From Chloroflexota bacterium (GTDB taxonomy: Bacteria; Chloroflexota; Anaerolineae; J102), in NCBI GenBank assembly GCA_013151415.1, contig JAADII010000196.1:1969-65968 (forward strand): 64,000 bases of DNA. The letters are read 5' to 3'. Positions within the stretch are counted from its first letter, which is position 1, and every line of letters begins with the position of its first letter. Positions 6,202-52,678 of this stretch are shown piece after piece. Under the pieces are notes generated by a model, which worked only from the letters and a program-made list of their open reading frames with translations, searched no databases and was not told the DNA's origin. The position numbers and the translations under genes were made by a program.

Positions 6202-6888
6202 TTACACCTGGAACTCCATTTCCAACAGGTCGAAGCTGCGACTCAGGGTGAGGGAGGGGATTTTTAGGAAGAGAAGCGAGAGGTCTTCGTGACCGGGGGG
6301 CAATTGCGGCAGATGTCGATAACGTTCATCGGGTGCGGCCGCGGCCATCAAAAAAGTGACATCCCCGCGCCTAAAAAGGAGCTTTCCGGCTTCAGCGATC
6401 TCTTCGCGAGCCTGTTTCATTCGTCGTTGCATGGCCGGCAAAATGCGTCGGGCGAAATGTTGGGCGAATGCATCGTTGGGCCCGCCTCCCGATGCATGAT
6501 AAGCCGGGCAAAACTCGGCGGCCCAGAAGCGCTCGGCCGAACGAAAAGCCGGGGAAAGCAGGTCGGCGTGAATGGTCACATCCAGCGTGGCGCCCAAACG
6601 TTCGATGCGGACCATGGCTTTGACCTGGAGCGGTCGCAAATCGAAGTAGGCCGCCGGATCGAAGCGCGTCCAATGAGGAAATGCGCGTGCAAGGCGGTCC
6701 AAGCGTTCGGCCAACAAGGCCACCGCATCGGCCAACCGGCGTCGCTGCTTTTCTGCAGGACCCCGCAGCGGCACGCGATATGCGGGGACCAATGGCTCTT
6801 CTAAAAACACCTGCGCCAAACTTTGGCAAGGCCAGTAACGATGTGGTTCGGCGATATGTGCGGCGAGAGCGGGAAGTGATGCGGGCAC
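6202..6888 (-). CDS. Hypothetical protein between rfbA and rfbB (GTG start at 6888; true start uncertain)
   Basis: Long open frame that fills the gap between rfbA and rfbB on the same strand and stops 3 nt before the rfbB start. No motif recognised. Confidence 0.6.
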   Translation of the reverse strand: MPASLPALAAHIAEPHRYWPCQSLAQVFLEEPLVPAYRVPLRGPAEKQRRRLADAVALLAERLDRLARAFPHWTRFDPAAYFDLRPLQVKAMVRIERLGATLDVTIHADLLSPAFRSAERFWAAEFCPAYHASGGGPNDAFAQHFARRILPAMQRRMKQAREEIAEAGKLLFRRGDVTFLMAAAAPDERYRHLPQLPPGHEDLSLLFLKIPSLTLSRSFDLLEMEFQV

Positions 6889-6898
6889 AGTTCTCGTG

Positions 6899-7972
6899 TC
6901 ATACAAGCCCCAGGCGCGAATTATCGCCCAGGGTGAGTTTGAGCGCGCGCGGCTTAAGTTCGGAATGTCGAAGCTCGACATTCCGTCCGATGAGGCTATC
7001 TGTAATACGCGCGGGCACATTGATAATTTTGCTATGTTCCAAGATCAGGCTGTGCTCGATTTCCGCGTTCTCGACCAGACAATGGTGGTAGATGGACGTG
7101 AAGGGGCCAATATAGCTATTGACCACGCGCGTGTTTTCGCCAATGATGGTGGGACCGCGCACGACGCTGTTGATGATCTCGGCCCCTTCCTCCACGGTCA
7201 CCCGCTCATCCACTTTGGAATCGCGATCCACAAAACCGCGAATTTCCGGCGTCAACTCCTCCAGCACTTTGCTGTTGGCGTCCAGCATGTCAATGGGTTT
7301 GCCGGTGTCGATCCACCAACCGCGATGAATGTAAGGGTGAACATGATATCCGTGCTCCACCAACCATTGGATTGCATCCGTGATTTCCAGCTCGCCCCGC
7401 CACGACGGTTCGATGGAGCGCACCGCTTCGTGAATATGTTTATCGAACATGTAAATGCCTACAAGGGCCAGATTGCTGGGCGGGTTGCGGGGTTTTTCCA
7501 CCAGGCGCTTGATGCTGCGATCAGGGTTCAACTCTGCCACCCCGTAATGTTGCGGTTCGGCCACTTCGGTGAGCACGATCTGGCTATTGTAGCCAGATTG
7601 TTCGAATTCCCGAATCAAGTTGCTAATGCCGCCCTCGATGACATTGTCGCCGAGGAACATCACAAAACGTTCATCTCCGAGGAAATCGCGGGCGATGAGC
7701 ACGCAATGGGCCAGGCCCAAAGGCGCTTCTTGGAGAATGTAGGTGACATTCACGCCCCAGCGTCGGCCCTGCCCCACGGCCTCTTGCACGCGACGACCAT
7801 TTTCGCCAATGCCAATGATGATGCCGATGTCGGTGATGCCCGCGTCGCGGATGGCCTCGATGACCCGAAAAAGCACAGGTTTGTTGGCCACAGGGATGAG
7901 CTGTTTGGCGTTGGTGTAGGTGAGGGGATAAAGGCGCGAGCCTTTCCCTCCGCTTAATATCAATGCTTTCAT
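6899..7972 (-). CDS. rfbA: Glucose-1-phosphate thymidylyltransferase (long form with C-terminal beta-helix)
   Basis: LSGGKGSRLYPLT...KQLIPVANKP, GLAH, FLGDN, EKP, RGELEITDA, WWIDTG. Confidence 0.93.
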   Translation of the reverse strand: MKALILSGGKGSRLYPLTYTNAKQLIPVANKPVLFRVIEAIRDAGITDIGIIIGIGENGRRVQEAVGQGRRWGVNVTYILQEAPLGLAHCVLIARDFLGDERFVMFLGDNVIEGGISNLIREFEQSGYNSQIVLTEVAEPQHYGVAELNPDRSIKRLVEKPRNPPSNLALVGIYMFDKHIHEAVRSIEPSWRGELEITDAIQWLVEHGYHVHPYIHRGWWIDTGKPIDMLDANSKVLEELTPEIRGFVDRDSKVDERVTVEEGAEIINSVVRGPTIIGENTRVVNSYIGPFTSIYHHCLVENAEIEHSLILEHSKIINVPARITDSLIGRNVELRHSELKPRALKLTLGDNSRLGLV

Positions 7973-45261: not shown

Positions 45262-45290
45262 AGGCCGGGCGCGAGTCAAGCGTCCGGCCT
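45262..45290 (+). terminator. Stem-loop after the DUF2892 gene
   Basis: AGGCCGGGCGC / GAGTCAA / GCGTCCGGCCT, then TATTTAT. Confidence 0.55.
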
Positions 45291-45415: not shown

Positions 45416-46264
45416 TTATTTGATTGCGCCCGCGGTCAGGCCGCTGATCATCTGGCGTTGGAGCAAGAAAAAGATGACGAGCACGGGGATGGTGCTCACC
45501 ACCGCGGCCGCGGACATGAGATCGAACCGATTCGTATATTGGCCCACGAAGAGCCGAATGCCCACGGGAATGGTGTTGACATTGAGCACCCAGGCGAAGA
45601 GCAGCTCGTCCCACGCGGCCAGGAACACGTAGATGGCCGTGGCCACAATGCCGGGTCGGGCCAGGGGGAGGGCGATGCGCCAAAACGCGCCAAAGGGCGT
45701 GGCTCCGTCGATGAGCGCGGCCTCTTCGAGATCGCGGGGGATGGTGGCGAAGAAGCTGCGCAGAATCCATAGGGAGAGGGGCAAGAAGAACGCGGTGTAC
45801 AGCACAATCGCGCCAAAGTTGGTGCCCACCAGGGGTATGCCCAGCCGTTTCTTGATCAATATGAAGTTGCCGTAAAGAGGCAAGAGAAAGAGGATGCCCG
45901 GAATGAGTTGCGTGCCCAACACCGCCAGGCCGAATGCATCCGCGCCGGGAAAACGAAATCGGGCCAGCGCGTAACCGCTGAGCGTGGCCAGAAAGCTGAC
46001 GATGAGGGTGGTGACGCCGCAGACGATGAGGCTGTTGCGAAAGTAGAGACCGAAATCCACCTGCGCCCACAGGTCTTGATAGTTGTGGAATTGGGGCTTT
46101 TCCGGGAAAAGCGCGGCCGCGGTTAGAATCTCCTGGTTCGTGCGCAATGAGTTGACGATCATCCAAAAGATGGGAAAGAGCACGAGCAGGATGATGGCGA
46201 TGAGCAGGAGATCGGCCAGACGATCCAATGCGAACCGACGATAGCGATAGTAAGTGGCGCTCAT
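45416..46264 (-). CDS. Carbohydrate ABC transporter permease (MalG-like)
   Basis: FPIFWMIVNSL, GYALARFRFPG, EAA loop LEEAALIDGA, FLAAWDEL. Confidence 0.92.
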   Translation of the reverse strand: MSATYYRYRRFALDRLADLLLIAIILLVLFPIFWMIVNSLRTNQEILTAAALFPEKPQFHNYQDLWAQVDFGLYFRNSLIVCGVTTLIVSFLATLSGYALARFRFPGADAFGLAVLGTQLIPGILFLLPLYGNFILIKKRLGIPLVGTNFGAIVLYTAFFLPLSLWILRSFFATIPRDLEEAALIDGATPFGAFWRIALPLARPGIVATAIYVFLAAWDELLFAWVLNVNTIPVGIRLFVGQYTNRFDLMSAAAVVSTIPVLVIFFLLQRQMISGLTAGAIK

Positions 46265-46267
46265 GGG

Positions 46268-47239
46268 CTATTCCTGGGTGAGTGAGCTGCGGAAGGTGCG
46301 ATACCAAAGAAAGACGAAGAACATCATGCCGAACATCATCAGCGTGGACGCGGCCGCGCCCAGGCCAAACAACCAGTAGCGGAAGGATTGACGCTCCAGC
46401 GCGGGCATGAGCAGGTCGCCCCATTCGCCCGGATACCCGCCGCCGTTGCCGAACATCATCACCACGATGTTGTAGCCGAAAAAGGTGAAGATCATGCCCC
46501 ACAACAGCATGATGGCCACCACAGGTTTGATCCAGGGCAAGGTGATGTGGCGGAATCGTTGCCATAAAGACGCGCCATCCACGACCGCGGCGTCATACAG
46601 GTCTTCCGGCACGGTTTGCAGGGCCGAAAGGAGCATGATGGTGGCGAAAGGAAGCTGTCGCCAGATGGTGGGGATGATGATGGCCCAAAGGGTGTTGGGG
46701 CCGATGAGCCAGAAAGGTCTCTGGTCCATGAGATGCAGCCAGTCCACCAGGATGATGTTGATGACGCCTCGTTCGCGTAGCCACATCATGCCCCACAACA
46801 AACCCACCGCGTAGGTTGGCACGACCCAGGGCATGAGAATGAGGGTGCGCGCCAGCCCTCGCCACCAAAATCGACGGTTGAGCAACAAAGCCGTCACCAT
46901 GCCCAGCCCCAAGGTCGCGGCATTCACCACCACACTATAGATAATTGTGTTGCGCGTGGCCTGTCCCAACCCGCGCACAATGGGGTTGTCGGGCGTGAGG
47001 AGGAGAAAACGATAGTTGGCCAGGCCGATGAAAGGCGCTCTCAGAAATTGTCCCAGGGTGTATTGGTTCAAATCCAGCATGGACATGTAGAGCGCCTCGA
47101 CCGTGGGAACGAGATGCACCAAAAGCATGGCGAACAGGGTCGGCGCTATCATGAGATAGGCCAGGCGGTGGCGCGCTGCACGCTCGCGCCATGCCTGCAA
47201 ACGGGTTTTAGGAGGTGAGATGGGTGTGACGATTTCCAT
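46268..47239 (-). CDS. Carbohydrate ABC transporter permease (MalF-like)
   Basis: FIGLANY, LILMPWVVP, WRQLPF, LYDAAVVDGAS.WQRF.HITLP. Confidence 0.92.
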   Translation of the reverse strand: MEIVTPISPPKTRLQAWRERAARHRLAYLMIAPTLFAMLLVHLVPTVEALYMSMLDLNQYTLGQFLRAPFIGLANYRFLLLTPDNPIVRGLGQATRNTIIYSVVVNAATLGLGMVTALLLNRRFWWRGLARTLILMPWVVPTYAVGLLWGMMWLRERGVINIILVDWLHLMDQRPFWLIGPNTLWAIIIPTIWRQLPFATIMLLSALQTVPEDLYDAAVVDGASLWQRFRHITLPWIKPVVAIMLLWGMIFTFFGYNIVVMMFGNGGGYPGEWGDLLMPALERQSFRYWLFGLGAAASTLMMFGMMFFVFLWYRTFRSSLTQE

Positions 47240-47375: not shown

Positions 47376-49856
47376 TTATTGATAGACGCCCTCATAAGGA
47401 ACCGGCGCGCTGGTCGCGATTCCCCAATAAGGATTGTATCCCAGCTCGGCGAAGATAAACCAGGACGTTGCGCCGATATGAAGACGGTTGTAATAGTTCC
47501 AAGGCCCGCCGGTGGGTAGATCGAAGCCGGTGCTCAGGCCATCCTGACTCGCGGCCACAATGCCGTAGCCGTCGGCATGAGGGGCCAGGGTTTGCGCTCG
47601 ACGCACCTCGGCCAGAAACTCGTCGGCTTCGTAATTTTGTCCCACCACTTGCAGCGCGGTCACCATCTGCGAGGTCCCTTCGAACCAGACGCCATCTTGG
47701 TCATCGTTGAAGTCGAACCCCCGGAAGGCCATGCCATTGGTGTTGTCTCGCGTTTGGTGGTGCACGCGCGAGTAGGTGAGCGAACGACCGTACTTATCTG
47801 CTTCGCCCATGCTCAACACGCCCCAAGTATTGACATCGAGAGGAAACGCATCTTGGTTGATGGTGACGCCGTCGGGTGCGGTTCCGGTGTAGAAATAGCC
47901 GTCCTGATCGTTCCACATTGCGGCGACAAAATTCTTGGCGTGCATCGCGCGCGTGCGCCACGTCGAGTCGCCGGTGAGTTCGTAGAGCTTCATGAACGCC
48001 ACATAGACATCGATGTTGTGCTCTGTGGATTTGTATGTCAACACCTCTTGATGAGGCTCCCAGCCCGCCACGCCGCCGGTGTAACCGCCGGGTCCGGTGA
48101 CGCTGTATGTGTTGTCAACGATCCATTGGGCCATGGAGGATGCAGCGTCGAGATACTTCTGGCCGCCGTACGTCTCGTAATAACGCAACAACGCCAGGAT
48201 GGTCCAGGCTGCGTTGCCTGTGGTCGTGCCGTTGCCATACTTGTCGTAATTATGTCGCGCCACGCCTGTGTTGGTGCTGAGTTCGCGCGCGTAATAGGTG
48301 TTGCGAATGCGCCCGTCATTGGCTTCATCGCGCTCTTGGGCGAAAATCAGGCTATCGGCCAGGAGCTGCGCCCGCCCTGCATCGGATGGATCGCCGCCGG
48401 CGAGAAAGGCCAGAAGGACAAGCGCGTTGTCATAAGTGTGCGCTACGTCCATCATAAACGAATCGGGATCGAACGGGGGCGGCAGGAAGTCTTCTTGCAA
48501 AGCCGGATCAGTGGACGCGTTGATAAAGCGGATGTCGTCGAGATAGAACGTGGCGCCGTTGGGATTGTTCGCCTTCGTTGCGGTCCAGGCGAAACCGCCG
48601 ATCACCTGAGAAAGATCATGGTTCGATAGATCGATGATATATTCTTGCCAGGCATTGCTCAGCGTGACCACGCCGGTGGACGCCGCGGGTTGAATCGAAT
48701 CGGGATAAGGTCCTTGAATCCCGCCAACGAGAAACTCGATCTTTTCCCCGCCGACCGCGCCTTTGGCCCAGAAAGAGAGGCGATCCGCGCCATCCAGATC
48801 AAAGCCGCCGGTGCGGTCGCCCCAGTTATAGGCGGGCGATTGCCAATAAACGCCGGCCCACTGTTGCCCCTGACTGGCATTGGCCGAATAATCGATGCGA
48901 ATGGCCGAATCGCCGCTGCGAGGCGCGGACGCGTCGTACGCGTCGAAGCTGATGTCGCCATAATCGCCCATCCAGCCCGTATCGTGATAAATATTGTAGA
49001 TGGAGGCGCCGTCTTTATAAACATAAGCATATCGATAGGCGTCCATGGGCCGCGGCGGCGTCCAATTGGCGTCCACCGTATAACTCTCCAAAAGTCGCAA
49101 CTTATTCGTGTAGTGTTCGAAGCGAATGTCGTCGAGATAGATGGTGGCGCCATTGGGGTTTTGGTTTTGATTGGTCACCCAGACGAAACCTCCGATCACA
49201 TAGCTCAGATCCTTTCCCGTCAGGTCGATGGTGTATTGTTGCCAATTCGATGATAGCGTGATCACGCCGGTGGTCACCTCGGGTTGAATCGAATCGGGAT
49301 AAGGGCCGCCGATCCCTCCCACCTTGAATTCCGCTTTTTCACCGCCCTGCGCGCCTCTGGCCCAAAAAGTGACCGATGTCGCGCCGGTCAAATCGAATCC
49401 GGCATTGGGGATATTGCCCCAGTTGTTGGCGGGTTCTTGCCAATAGATGCCGGCCCATCCCTGACTTCCGGCGGCCGCGTAATCGATACGGATCGCGGTC
49501 GCTCCGGTGTGTGGATTCGTGACATCATCATCGCTGAATGTGATATCGCCGACATCGCCCATCCAGCCGGAGGGCGTGAAGTGATTGCCTATGGCATATT
49601 GCTCACTGTATATGTCGAAAGTGAGATAGCGATCCATAACCTGGCGGAGATGGGTGAGCGCATTGTTTGCGTGCGAGTTCGAAAGGGCTTGGGTGTTGGT
49701 GGTTGCCGACGCTCCTCCATACTCGACCGGAAGCGCTCGCACGCGGTGATTCGAGAGACCGAAGAGCAGAATCAGGACCGCAACCAGGCCAATGGATAGA
49801 AAGAAGAGACGGTTTGTATATTGTGGGTGCATGTTCAAGGTCTCCAGGCATGTCAT
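47376..49856 (-). CDS. Secreted protein with two tandem CBM-like (GWMGD) domains and a C-terminal putative (alpha/alpha)-barrel glycosidase-like domain; start may be 49832
   Basis: Signal peptide; two ~165-aa repeats (GWMGD.GDI.F ... WAG.YWQ.P..NWG ... GPYPDSIQP ... NPNGAT.YLDDIRF); helical C-domain with YDNAL, KSTEHNID, WFEGT. Confidence 0.7.
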   Translation of the reverse strand: MTCLETLNMHPQYTNRLFFLSIGLVAVLILLFGLSNHRVRALPVEYGGASATTNTQALSNSHANNALTHLRQVMDRYLTFDIYSEQYAIGNHFTPSGWMGDVGDITFSDDDVTNPHTGATAIRIDYAAAGSQGWAGIYWQEPANNWGNIPNAGFDLTGATSVTFWARGAQGGEKAEFKVGGIGGPYPDSIQPEVTTGVITLSSNWQQYTIDLTGKDLSYVIGGFVWVTNQNQNPNGATIYLDDIRFEHYTNKLRLLESYTVDANWTPPRPMDAYRYAYVYKDGASIYNIYHDTGWMGDYGDISFDAYDASAPRSGDSAIRIDYSANASQGQQWAGVYWQSPAYNWGDRTGGFDLDGADRLSFWAKGAVGGEKIEFLVGGIQGPYPDSIQPAASTGVVTLSNAWQEYIIDLSNHDLSQVIGGFAWTATKANNPNGATFYLDDIRFINASTDPALQEDFLPPPFDPDSFMMDVAHTYDNALVLLAFLAGGDPSDAGRAQLLADSLIFAQERDEANDGRIRNTYYARELSTNTGVARHNYDKYGNGTTTGNAAWTILALLRYYETYGGQKYLDAASSMAQWIVDNTYSVTGPGGYTGGVAGWEPHQEVLTYKSTEHNIDVYVAFMKLYELTGDSTWRTRAMHAKNFVAAMWNDQDGYFYTGTAPDGVTINQDAFPLDVNTWGVLSMGEADKYGRSLTYSRVHHQTRDNTNGMAFRGFDFNDDQDGVWFEGTSQMVTALQVVGQNYEADEFLAEVRRAQTLAPHADGYGIVAASQDGLSTGFDLPTGGPWNYYNRLHIGATSWFIFAELGYNPYWGIATSAPVPYEGVYQ

Positions 49857-49885
49857 TCGGGGATGGGAGCGCTCCCATCCCCGAA
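49856..49885. promoter_or_regulatory. Perfect 30-bp palindrome with a central CelR/CebR-type operator
   Basis: TTCGGGGATGGGAGC|GCTCCCATCCCCGAA; core TGGGAGCGCTCCCA at 49864-49877. Confidence 0.85.
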
Positions 49886-49894
49886 CAAAAAAAG

Positions 49895-51379
49895 CTATTG
49901 CGAAGCGTAGGAGGCCGTGGCCAAAAGTGCATTCACCTCTTCCGCGGCCTGGTTCAGTCGCTCCGGAATCATGGTCTCGGGATCGAAGGGGCCGTTCACG
50001 CCCGCGACGTCATCCCACAGCGCGCCCAGGTGCTTCACCATGGCCGATTCGATGGGGCCCCAGGCCGCAATGGCCGGGTAGGATTTTCCGTTGGCCACAG
50101 CTTGCACGAAAACGCCATATCGGGGATCATCACTAAAGACCGGGTCGGCCAGGGCCTCTTTGTTGGCCGGAATCATGCCGATGTTGGCGCTGTAGCGCAC
50201 CTGGGACTCCCGGGAAGCCAGGTATTGCACGAACATGACGGCTTCCTTGGGATATTTGCTGCTTTGCCATACGGTGAGATTGGAGCCTCCCACAAAGGTG
50301 AAGCGCCCCGCCGGCCCGGCCGGGATTTCATGCACGGCCAGATTGTTGGCCGCATCGGTTCCCGCAAAACCGCCCTGATCCGAGGGCGTCTCCGAGTTCT
50401 TCACCAGCCAGGGGCCAGAGATGACCATGGCCACCTTGCCCTCGCCATAAAGCCCGTCCACCTGCGCGCTGTTCAGCTCCAATGCATCGGAGGGGGTGTA
50501 GCCTTTGGTGTAAAGGCTGGTGTAGAATTGCACGCCCTCGATGGCCTCGGGGCTGTTGAACGCGGCCGCGGTGTTGCCGGGGTTGAGCATGTCGCCGCCC
50601 GCTTCCCACACCCAGGGCGCGAAGTTGTGCAACACGTTCCAATCGTTTTTACCGGGAAAGGCGATGGGCGCCAGGTCGGGGTTCTTTTCCTTGAGAGTGG
50701 CCAAAGCCTGATCGAAGCTTTCCCAGGTGGCGAAGGCCTCGTCGGGATTCAGCCCCGCCTGCTCCAGCGCGTCGGCCCGATAGACGATGGCGCGGGTGTC
50801 CACGAACCAGGGTAGGGCCGTGGTGAAGCCGCTGCCGATGGGGTTGGCGGTCTGCCAGGACGCGTCCACGAACGCGTCGCCCCCGCCGACCGCGGCGATC
50901 TCATCGGCCGTGAAGGGCCGCAGCGCGCCCATGGCGCTGATGGCCGCGACCCAAGTCGTGCCCAGTTGCGAGATGTCGGGGCCTTCGCCGCTGGTGGCCG
51001 CGGTGGTGATCTTGGACCAGGCCGCGCCCCAATCGATGACCTCAACCTCCACGGTGATGTTGGGGTGCAAGGCGTTGAACGCGTCGGCCTCCTGCTGCAT
51101 GATCTCCAATGGTTGGGGGCCGTTGGGCATGATCCACATTTTCAGGGTCACCGGCTCGGCCGGCGCGGGCGTTGGCGTGACCACCACCTCTTTTTCCACC
51201 ACTTTGGTCACCTCGACTTGCTTCTCCACCACCTTGGTGACCTCTTTTTCCACGATTTTGGTCACCTCGACGGTCTGCACCTCGGGCGTGGGGGCCGGCG
51301 CGGCGCACGCCGCGAGGAAGATCAACAAACTCACACCAATGAGAGCGGCGAAAACGCCGCGATGTCTGCGAAACATCAT
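49895..51379 (-). CDS. Sugar ABC transporter substrate-binding lipoprotein (family 1)
   Basis: Lipobox LAAC, VEVTKVVEK repeats, GPDISQLGTTW, LPWFVDTRA, FVGGSNL; SD AGGAGGAG. Confidence 0.9.
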   Translation of the reverse strand: MMFRRHRGVFAALIGVSLLIFLAACAAPAPTPEVQTVEVTKIVEKEVTKVVEKQVEVTKVVEKEVVVTPTPAPAEPVTLKMWIMPNGPQPLEIMQQEADAFNALHPNITVEVEVIDWGAAWSKITTAATSGEGPDISQLGTTWVAAISAMGALRPFTADEIAAVGGGDAFVDASWQTANPIGSGFTTALPWFVDTRAIVYRADALEQAGLNPDEAFATWESFDQALATLKEKNPDLAPIAFPGKNDWNVLHNFAPWVWEAGGDMLNPGNTAAAFNSPEAIEGVQFYTSLYTKGYTPSDALELNSAQVDGLYGEGKVAMVISGPWLVKNSETPSDQGGFAGTDAANNLAVHEIPAGPAGRFTFVGGSNLTVWQSSKYPKEAVMFVQYLASRESQVRYSANIGMIPANKEALADPVFSDDPRYGVFVQAVANGKSYPAIAAWGPIESAMVKHLGALWDDVAGVNGPFDPETMIPERLNQAAEEVNALLATASYASQ

Positions 51380-51480: not shown

Positions 51481-52503
51481 TTACATGACAGAGCCGCATG
51501 AGGCTCGGATGACCAGCTCGGTGGGCAGGATCGCTCGCAATGGCGCTTGCGTTCGTCCTTCCAGAATGCGGAAGAGCAGCTCCGCGGCCGTGCGCCCTAG
51601 TTTGTAGATGGGTTGGCGCACGGTGGTGAGGGGCGGCGTGCTGTAGGCCGCGACCTGGGCGTCGTCGAAGCCGACTACCGCAATATCGGCCGGCACGCGC
51701 AGCTCGGCTTCGTAGATCGCGCGCAGCGCGCCGATGGCCATCAGATCATTGGCCGCAAACACCGCGTCCGGCTTTTGTTGCAACAACTGCTGCATGGCCA
51801 GATAGCCGCCCGCTTCGGTGAAATCCCCCTCGGCTATCAGTGTTTCGTCCACCACATGGCCGTTGCGGCGCAGCGCGGCCTTCCACCCCTCGAGACGATC
51901 CACGCCCGCCACCATGTTCATGGGCCCGGTGATGGTGGCGATGCGACGCCGTCCCAGCCGCATGAGGTGCTCCACGGCCATCAACGCGCCGTGCAGATTG
52001 TCCACATCCACGTAATTCACTTCGGGGATGGTGGGATGACGGCCAATGACCACAAATGGGATGTCGTCGCGATGAAGCCGCGGGATCAGCGCGTCGTCGA
52101 GAAACGCGGAGATGATGACCACGCCCTCCAGCATCTGGCTGCGCAGAGAGCGGCGATAAAAATCATCTTCCTGATGAGGCGGCACCATGGCCAGGAACAT
52201 ATGATATTGCTGCTCGTTGGCCGCGTCCGCGATGCCGTGAAGCACGCGCGAGAAATAGGGGTCGGAGAAAACCGTGTTCACGGCCTGGGGGATGACGATG
52301 CCCAGAGTCTTGGTGCGACGGCCGGCCAGGCTGCGGGCCGCGGCGTGGGGATGATAGCCCATCTCTTTCACGACGCGCCATACGCGCTCGCGCACCGCAT
52401 CGCTGACATTGGGTTCATCGTTGATGACGCGCGAGACGGTGGAGCGCGACACGCCGGCCGCTTTGGCGATTTGTTCGAGGGTGGGGGTGTTGGATGGGGT
52501 CAT
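51481..52503 (-). CDS. LacI-family transcriptional regulator (CelR-like)
   Basis: PTLEQIAKAAGVSRSTVSRVIN...GYHPHAAARSL, VDVDN, EGDFT, FAANDLMA, VVGFDD, PLTTVRQP. Confidence 0.93.
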   Translation of the reverse strand: MTPSNTPTLEQIAKAAGVSRSTVSRVINDEPNVSDAVRERVWRVVKEMGYHPHAAARSLAGRRTKTLGIVIPQAVNTVFSDPYFSRVLHGIADAANEQQYHMFLAMVPPHQEDDFYRRSLRSQMLEGVVIISAFLDDALIPRLHRDDIPFVVIGRHPTIPEVNYVDVDNLHGALMAVEHLMRLGRRRIATITGPMNMVAGVDRLEGWKAALRRNGHVVDETLIAEGDFTEAGGYLAMQQLLQQKPDAVFAANDLMAIGALRAIYEAELRVPADIAVVGFDDAQVAAYSTPPLTTVRQPIYKLGRTAAELLFRILEGRTQAPLRAILPTELVIRASCGSVM

Positions 52504-52517
52504 GATCGCTCCTTGTG

Positions 52518-52531
52518 TGAGAGCGCTCTCA
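52518..52531. promoter_or_regulatory. LacI-type operator variant directly upstream of the regulator's start
   Basis: Perfect 14-bp palindrome TGAGAGCGCTCTCA. Confidence 0.8.
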
Positions 52532-52635
52532 GATAGCTACGATGAAAAGAACGTGATTTTGCTGGAACTATCCCATTTATGGCGCTTGATCGCATGCAAA
52601 CCACTATGTTTGCGAGCTTCTATCGGCCAAAATGT

Positions 52636-52678
52636 CTGGGAGCGCTCCCAGTATAGCACGCGAAAAAGCCCCTGTCAA
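52636..52678 (-). promoter_or_regulatory. Sigma70 promoter with overlapping CelR/CebR-type operator
   Basis: Minus strand TTGACA (52678-52673), 17 nt, TATACT (52655-52650), overlapping by 1 nt the palindrome CTGGGAGCGCTCCCAG (52636-52651), which covers the expected start site. Confidence 0.88.

Follow-up and report, generated by a model that had tools for sequence, protein, structure and literature searches.

In actinobacteria, the 14-bp box TGGGAGCGCTCCCA, its variants (including TGAGAGCGCTCTCA, reported in PMC3377646) and the autoregulated transporter operons that carry them are well described (PMC3377646, PMC4358012, PMC3538285, PMC4898821, PMC4697097), and the function of the box is repression that is released by cellobiose (PMC4358012, PMC4697097, PMC3377646). 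In Thermobifida fusca, TGGGAGCGCTCCCA is the operator of the LacI-family repressor CelR (PMC4697097), and is found upstream of an autoregulated operon encoding an ABC sugar importer together with the regulator (PMC3377646). In T. fusca bglABC-celR the regulator gene comes last and a β-glucosidase is present, and CelR also governs many cellulase genes that are dispersed in the genome. In Streptomyces (S. reticuli, S. griseus and S. scabies; cebR-cebEFG-bglC), CebR recognizes the same box consensus and is released by cellobiose and cello-oligosaccharides (PMC4358012). The cebR gene is divergent from cebE, and tens of boxes are present per genome (PMC3538285, PMC4898821), some of them inside transcription units, e.g. 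within txtB (PMC4358012). The importer consists of a family-1 binding protein and two permeases, while its ATPase MsiK is encoded elsewhere.

A LacI-family survey (Ravcheev 2014) places CelR groups, among the non-proteobacterial groups, only in actinobacteria and Thermotogales, and carries the β-glucoside regulators of Chloroflexi under locus-tag names; our literature search found no paper describing the CelR/CebR box in Chloroflexota. Here we describe a locus in the genome of a bacterium of this phylum, contained in a 64,000-nt stretch of contig JAADII010000196.1 that was analysed as a whole (the window). The promoter, the operators and all genes of the locus read on the minus strand, a point on which the earlier note on this DNA was silent (Table 1). 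The reading that we regard as probable is that a CelR/CebR-type repressor with three 14-bp operators controls this five-gene operon, with a β-linked glucose sugar as the inducer.

Table 1. Control elements and genes of the locus, in window positions
Feature	Positions	Strand	Basis or remark
-35 hexamer TTGACA	52673-52678	minus	Promoter scan, 17-nt spacer
-10 hexamer TATACT with TG extension	52650-52655	minus	Final T doubles as base 1 of O1
O1, exact CelR/CebR box TGGGAGCGCTCCCA	52637-52650		Spans the -10 end and the predicted transcription start
O2, variant TGAGAGCGCTCTCA	52518-52531		Ends 4 nt 5' of the regulator Shine-Dalgarno
Shine-Dalgarno AGGAG of the regulator	52509-52513	minus	Read from sequence; ATG at 52503
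celR/cebR-type LacI-family repressor gene, 340 aa	51481-52503	minus	Pfam LacI and Peripla_BP_3/1, PDB, tree
Family-1 solute-binding lipoprotein of an ABC importer	49895-51379	minus	Pfam SBP_bac_1
O3 within a perfect 30-nt palindrome	49856-49885 (box central, 49864-49877)		Sequence and RNA fold
826-aa secreted or membrane-anchored protein, frame	47376-49856	minus	Signal anchor, repeats, barrel
ABC permease 1, MalF/UgpA-like	46268-47239	minus	Pfam BPD_transp_1, NCBIfam; 79% identity to locus L124
ABC permease 2, MalG-like, last gene of the operon	45416-46264	minus	NCBIfam MalG/GlcU-like; 81% identity to locus L124

The regulator and its box

The regulator belongs to the LacI/GalR family by its Pfam matches (PF00356 LacI, 1.5e-18; PF13377, 2.8e-41; PF00532, 4.9e-32). 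Its top PDB match is 5ysz_A (E 7e-80, 272 bits, 44% identity), 82 bits above the second, a ribose repressor (190 bits). In the reverse search of the genome with the 5ysz chain, the window regulator scored 266 bits (44% identity) and the best paralogue 187 bits, making the pair reciprocal best hits. We take PDB entry 5YSZ to be the cellobiose complex of T. fusca CelR, in line with the placement of the chain among actinobacterial sequences; its label in the PDB table is simply 'LacI family'. The recognition helix reads SRSTVSRVIN in the window regulator and GRGTVSRVIN both in 5ysz and in Streptomyces, with TVSRVIN common to all, while the paralogues in the same genome, which encodes at least ten other LacI-family proteins, carry SRTTVSFVLN or SITTVSRAL. 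The earlier note had remarked that the helix-turn-helix resembles that of CelR, which the shared TVSRVIN and the reciprocal best hit bear out, and by these comparisons the protein can be assigned to the CelR/CebR orthologous group. An exact-sequence look-up found no record of a sequence identical to the regulator, and a scan of public genome contigs with exact peptide words from it returned only distant LacI proteins (at most 39% identity) and no orthologues.

The statements of the earlier note about the sites hold: the 14-mer matches the published CelR/CebR box (PMC4358012, PMC3538285, PMC4697097) and overlaps the -10 and start of a TTGACA-17-TATACT promoter, a variant lies 119 bp away (O1 to O2, centre to centre) beside the regulator Shine-Dalgarno, and a third, exact copy begins at 49864. 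Three or more matches with at most two mismatches arose in one of 100 shuffles of the window. In the entire genome (4.52 Mb in 197 contigs, 58% GC) the exact 14-mer occurs as O1 and O3 alone, the chance expectation being ∼0.04 as estimated from base composition. The two departures of O2 from the consensus occupy mirror-image positions, which preserves its dyad symmetry. With a weight matrix made from 45 sites in related loci, the three local sites rank first, second and fourth in the genome, O1 being the highest-scoring of all (25.1 bits), and they are the genome's only strong sites outside coding frames.

The third-ranked site (C79:4581) was rejected as a coincidence, as it lies within an unrelated 648-aa coding frame that reads as a corrinoid-activation-like protein; the genome's sole one-mismatch site and nearly all of its two-mismatch sites were likewise dismissed, being located within long coding frames.

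Where the earlier note had spoken of a regulon, the genome scan for the 14-mer returned one local operon and no further non-coding sites. The sites of the window thus lie within a single operon, whereas T. fusca CelR serves many dispersed genes and Streptomyces genomes hold tens of boxes, and the genome shows no multi-operon regulon including cellulases of the T. fusca or cellulolytic Streptomyces type. Such a regulon is not needed for membership in the CelR/CebR group, because several actinobacteria use the box only for the transporter operon (PMC3377646).

Comparison across genomes supports the conclusion that the box travels with orthologues of the window regulator and not with its paralogues. 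Orthologues at 50% identity or more are present in 8 of 40 related genomes, and the exact box is found upstream of all six class-level orthologues for which upstream DNA is available. At the level of the phylum, an orthologue is present in 28 of 301 Chloroflexota genomes, and a site with at most two mismatches lies within 1.5 kb in 27 of the 29 orthologue loci, versus none of 11 paralogue loci. The exact box itself is rare in the phylum, occurring in 13 of the 301 genomes, in one or two copies each (2/301 for the reversed-pattern control). In a sample of Actinomycetota, 22 of 301 genomes encode a homologue (41-50% identity), and boxes are present at about half of these loci. A group of Chloroflexus-like loci (f34; L059, L064-L066, L069-L074) have the recognition helix SRSTASRVLN, with Ala in place of Val, and boxes of the form TGGGAACGCTTCCA or TGGAAGCGTTCCCA, a possible case of co-variation between protein and operator.

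The same comparison bears on whether the 14-mers are operators of this regulator at all. They could instead be structural repeats of RNA or DNA (hairpins, REP-like elements), as the perfect 30-nt palindrome and strong predicted RNA hairpin around O3 might suggest, or sites of one of the ∼10 LacI paralogues that the genome offers as candidates. However, O1 and O2 alone form only 5-bp stems, the core is invariant across loci while the flanks vary, the changes in O2 affect both half-sites symmetrically as expected for a dimer-bound site, and no Rfam family was matched in the leader and intergenic regions. Together with the placement of the sites beside orthologues of this regulator and at none of the 11 paralogue loci, this makes either alternative extremely improbable, and we continue to read the boxes as operators of the window regulator. 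Elsewhere in the genome, a perfect palindrome TGAAAGCGCTTTCA occurs at C94:5125 in an intergenic region, ∼400 bp upstream of a LacI-family gene (C94:5529-6455), and is probably the operator of that paralogue.

Layout of the operon and proposed roles of the three sites

The promoter TTGACA-17-TATACT scores 11/12 and is the top promoter of a 10-kb scan. Its -10 hexamer and O1 share one base, the last T of the former being the first of the latter, which places the expected start site within O1. No convincing internal promoter was found before the enzyme gene or between the regulator and binding-protein genes, so a single transcription unit comprising all five genes is the simplest reading. Among sequencing runs, the locus was found in no RNA run, and the DNA runs were all metagenomes. 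The open frame of the binding protein extends to 51457, with the ATG at 51379 as the likely start and a visible signal peptide ending in LAAC; for the 826-aa protein, translation likely begins at the ATG at 49832, in front of which stands GGAG. An ATPase gene is absent from the operon, and three MalK-type ATPase genes are present elsewhere in the genome, an arrangement like that of the Streptomyces ceb importer. The regulator gene comes first in the window, as opposed to last in T. fusca bglABC-celR, and is not divergent from the transporter genes as in Streptomyces. Just beyond the last permease gene there is a GC-rich hairpin with an 11-bp stem (45262-45290), which the scan calls as a plus-strand terminator and which may mark the end of the operon.

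In the mechanism that we propose, a single near-consensus sigma-70 promoter would drive the genes for the repressor, the binding lipoprotein, the secreted enzyme and the two permeases. When inducer is absent, repressor dimers would bind the three copies of the 14-bp palindrome. At O1, over the -10 and the start site, the bound dimer would exclude RNA polymerase; O1 would thus block the repressor's own promoter, and the repressor would therefore be autoregulated. O2, ∼115 nt into the leader beside the ribosome-binding site, may provide a second block or a cooperative anchor. O3, past the binding-protein gene, may act as a roadblock before the enzyme and permease genes and form a stable hairpin once transcribed. 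The inducer would be a β-linked glucose disaccharide or short oligosaccharide (most likely cellobiose or cellodextrins, with laminaribiose or sophorose possible), and uptake would be powered by an ATPase encoded elsewhere. While the sites, their rarity, the orthology of the regulator and the conservation of box and layout are directly observed, repressor binding, the position of the start site, a shared transcript, the nature of the inducer and what O2 and O3 contribute are what we infer from sequence.

The layout is conserved in related Chloroflexota loci: Herpetosiphon-like (f50) and Chloroflexus-like (f34) loci, genomes of the same class and L124 share the regulator clade, an identical or nearly identical box and the design of promoter, O1 and O2. 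A TTGACA-17-TATAnT promoter precedes the orthologous regulators of L042, L043, L045, L047 and L124, with O1 at or just past the -10, and the arrangement of promoter, O1 and O2 is seen again in L041, L042, L043, L045 and L047. The overlap between the -10 and O1 is identical in L124 and L043 (TATACTGGGAGC and TATAATGGGAGC). The TGAGAGCGCTCTCA variant adjoins the Shine-Dalgarno also in L041, and a box adjoins the Shine-Dalgarno or the ATG in L042, L043, L045 and L124.

The nearest relative found, L124, has the same gene order as the window, with identities of 69% for the regulator, 83% for the binding protein, 79% for the enzyme and about 80% for the permeases; at the end of its operon L124 carries a GH116 gene that is absent in the window. 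Its promoter box is TATACTGGGAGCGCTCCCA, with a second box 82 bp downstream and a third, contained in a hairpin (L124:7183-7214), immediately past the end of the binding-protein frame and a stretch of T's. The homologue of the 826-aa enzyme in L124 (L124:7337-9944) is called as three separate frames, pointing to a frameshift or a mistake in the assembly.

O3 is located 10 nt past the stop codon of the binding-protein gene, after a run of seven T's, and its palindrome folds as RNA with a predicted energy of -30.8 kcal/mol (z -3.8). Between this hairpin (49856-49885) and that of L124, both of which follow a TAG and a T-run, the box core is the same and the arm sequence is different. This pattern, an unchanged core between co-varying arms, suggests selection on the operator as well as on the hairpin. 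O3 may be both a DNA operator and an RNA element. A U-rich stretch follows the hairpin in L124 and is absent in the window. It may also be that O3 works mainly as an RNA element and not as an operator; a site within a transcription unit is comparable to the CebR site within txtB.

The earlier note had further proposed that the sites are looped, with one repressor oligomer bridging O1 and O2 across 119 bp, and perhaps O3, in the manner of the lac repressor tetramer. The E. coli lac system resembles the window in having a main operator at the start site and auxiliary operators, of which one is located well downstream inside the transcription unit, although its operator sequence and effector class differ. 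Two or three sites per locus are the rule among orthologues, and of 25 spacings between sites at related loci, 18 deviate by no more than a quarter turn from a whole number of helical turns (10.5 bp each), a weak excess among loci that are not independent. However, the lac repressor tetramerizes, whereas the alignment of the window regulator (340 aa) with LacI spans residues 5-327 of the latter's 360, after which the window protein stops; it therefore has no tetramerization helix, and looping of the lac type is not to be expected. O1-O2 spacing is not conserved among close relatives (73, 75, 75, 82, 119 and 192 bp), the 119 bp of the window misses helical phase by a third of a turn, and the layout is accounted for just as well by two dimers that bind independently. 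We thus consider looping unlikely, and retain separately bound dimers in the proposed mechanism.

Cargo genes and the likely sugar

The binding protein of the window finds its best PDB matches in 7c63 and related entries (E 1e-117), which we take to be a Thermus β-glucoside binder, and matches CbpB (7x0i) at E 2.5e-93, presumably a cellodextrin binder of Clostridium thermocellum. It is ∼28% identical to the binding proteins beside the actinobacterial regulators in L083-L085. Most orthologous Chloroflexota loci have an Opp-type importer (SBP_bac_5) together with GH1, GH94, GH116 or GH130. Herpetosiphon-like loci (f50) encode celR, a binding-protein orthologue at 52% identity, two permeases and GH116, and adjoin GH9-CBM3-CBM2 and GH48-CBM2 cellulases that themselves carry boxes. 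Autoregulated β-glucoside control, as the earlier note had proposed, agrees with the position of O1 at the regulator's own promoter and with the β-glucoside-type cargo in relatives; from sequence, a β-glucoside-type operon appears well supported, and cellobiose specifically as its sugar appears plausible.

The 826-aa protein consists of a signal anchor, two carbohydrate-binding-like repeats of ∼190 aa and, at the C terminus, a six-hairpin barrel whose family has no name. It has a weak Pfam match to GH127 and no match among PDB sequences, and more than 2000 unnamed homologues occur in many phyla and in archaea. The AlphaFold model (pLDDT 90) has remote fold matches (TM ∼0.6) to GH76, cellobiose 2-epimerase and the core of GH94. 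The window operon contains no β-glucosidase, which is present in the T. fusca operon, and no phosphorylase, and no box accompanies the genome's single GH1 gene, so that the link to catabolism is indirect. In the C162:2665-4926 / 6803-7807 region of the genome, a GH94-like gene with 27% identity to a cellobiose phosphorylase homologue adjoins a different LacI paralogue, and may represent a second β-glucoside locus under another regulator.

Because the cargo genes vary among orthologous loci, the effector specificity may have shifted. The same switch might then respond to laminaribiose (β-1,3), sophorose (β-1,2) or gentiobiose, with the operon serving a non-cellulosic β-glucan. This would fit the exchange of cargo that sets the locus apart from most of its orthologues, an enzyme from an unnamed barrel family without a cellulase signature, a genome with no GH116, GH9 or GH48 genes, and the occurrence of Lin1841, which we take to be a β-1,2-glucan binder, among the weaker PDB relatives of the binding protein. 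On the other hand, the 52% binding-protein orthologues sit in a GH9-CBM/GH48-CBM cellulase locus, and CbpB, a cellodextrin binder, is a strong PDB match. In addition, all characterized members of the regulator group answer to cellobiose or cello-oligosaccharides (PMC4358012). A different sugar is, in our judgement, a serious but less likely possibility, and cellobiose or cellodextrins would remain the favored signal.

Descent of the switch and its meaning

The maximum-likelihood tree of the regulators (61 sequences; support given as bootstrap/SH-aLRT) separates the box-associated orthogroup from the paralogues (99/96). Within the orthogroup, the actinobacterial clade of T. fusca and Streptomyces type, which holds 5ysz (100/100), is sister to a clade of 24 Chloroflexota rows, including the window, and six actinobacterial rows (97/91). 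The window groups with L124 (99/95), and the two group with a genome of the same class (99/94). The check that the earlier note had called for, a phylogeny of the LacI protein with CelR/CebR, thus places the regulator in a well-supported clade sister to that of the actinobacterial proteins.

That note had left it between shared descent and horizontal acquisition. A recent acquisition from Actinomycetota might be suspected from the patchy distribution, since, of 24 further genomes from the same family, a single one has an orthologue (and it is not the closest neighbor in the tree), and from the fact that transfers of the regulator gene between the phyla do occur. One Chloroflexota regulator (L076, genome G279) nests inside the actinobacterial CelR clade (100/96) and six actinobacterial regulators (among L083-L088 and L104) are embedded in the Chloroflexota clade; transfers of the module between the phyla have therefore gone both ways. 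However, the window regulator falls in the Chloroflexota-dominated clade, outside the actinobacterial one, its best actinobacterial match is 50% identical compared with 59-69% for relatives on the Chloroflexota side, and the GC and GC3 of the operon match those of neighboring genes. Given the sister-clade placement and the native composition, a recent import from actinobacteria is very unlikely. Within Chloroflexota, where classes are interleaved on the regulator tree and the distribution is patchy, transfer or loss is likely.

On a larger scale, we tentatively suggest, as a view still open to considerable doubt, that CelR/CebR and its 14-bp box are an old module of the Terrabacteria, with an operator that is identical in Actinomycetota and Chloroflexota and cargo that has been repeatedly exchanged. 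Here the module would have come to control a family-1 importer and a six-hairpin-barrel enzyme, with O3 possibly built into an RNA hairpin. If so, the 30 nt of O3 would be at once a DNA roadblock and a stabilizing or processing signal of the mRNA, and the unnamed enzyme family of more than 2000 members would gain its first regulatory and substrate context (β-glucan). The operon ties a likely substrate class to these many unnamed secreted enzymes.

The 'actinobacterial' cellulose switch is not confined to that phylum, as the protein-operator pair is kept in about one in ten of the sampled Chloroflexota genomes, and the β-glucoside regulons of uncultured Chloroflexota are thus predictable from a 14-bp motif. 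A consensus promoter combined with a few operators makes a compact and portable sugar-responsive switch. Current understanding of this switch is not overturned; a known device is extended to another phylum, where its cargo has been rewired.
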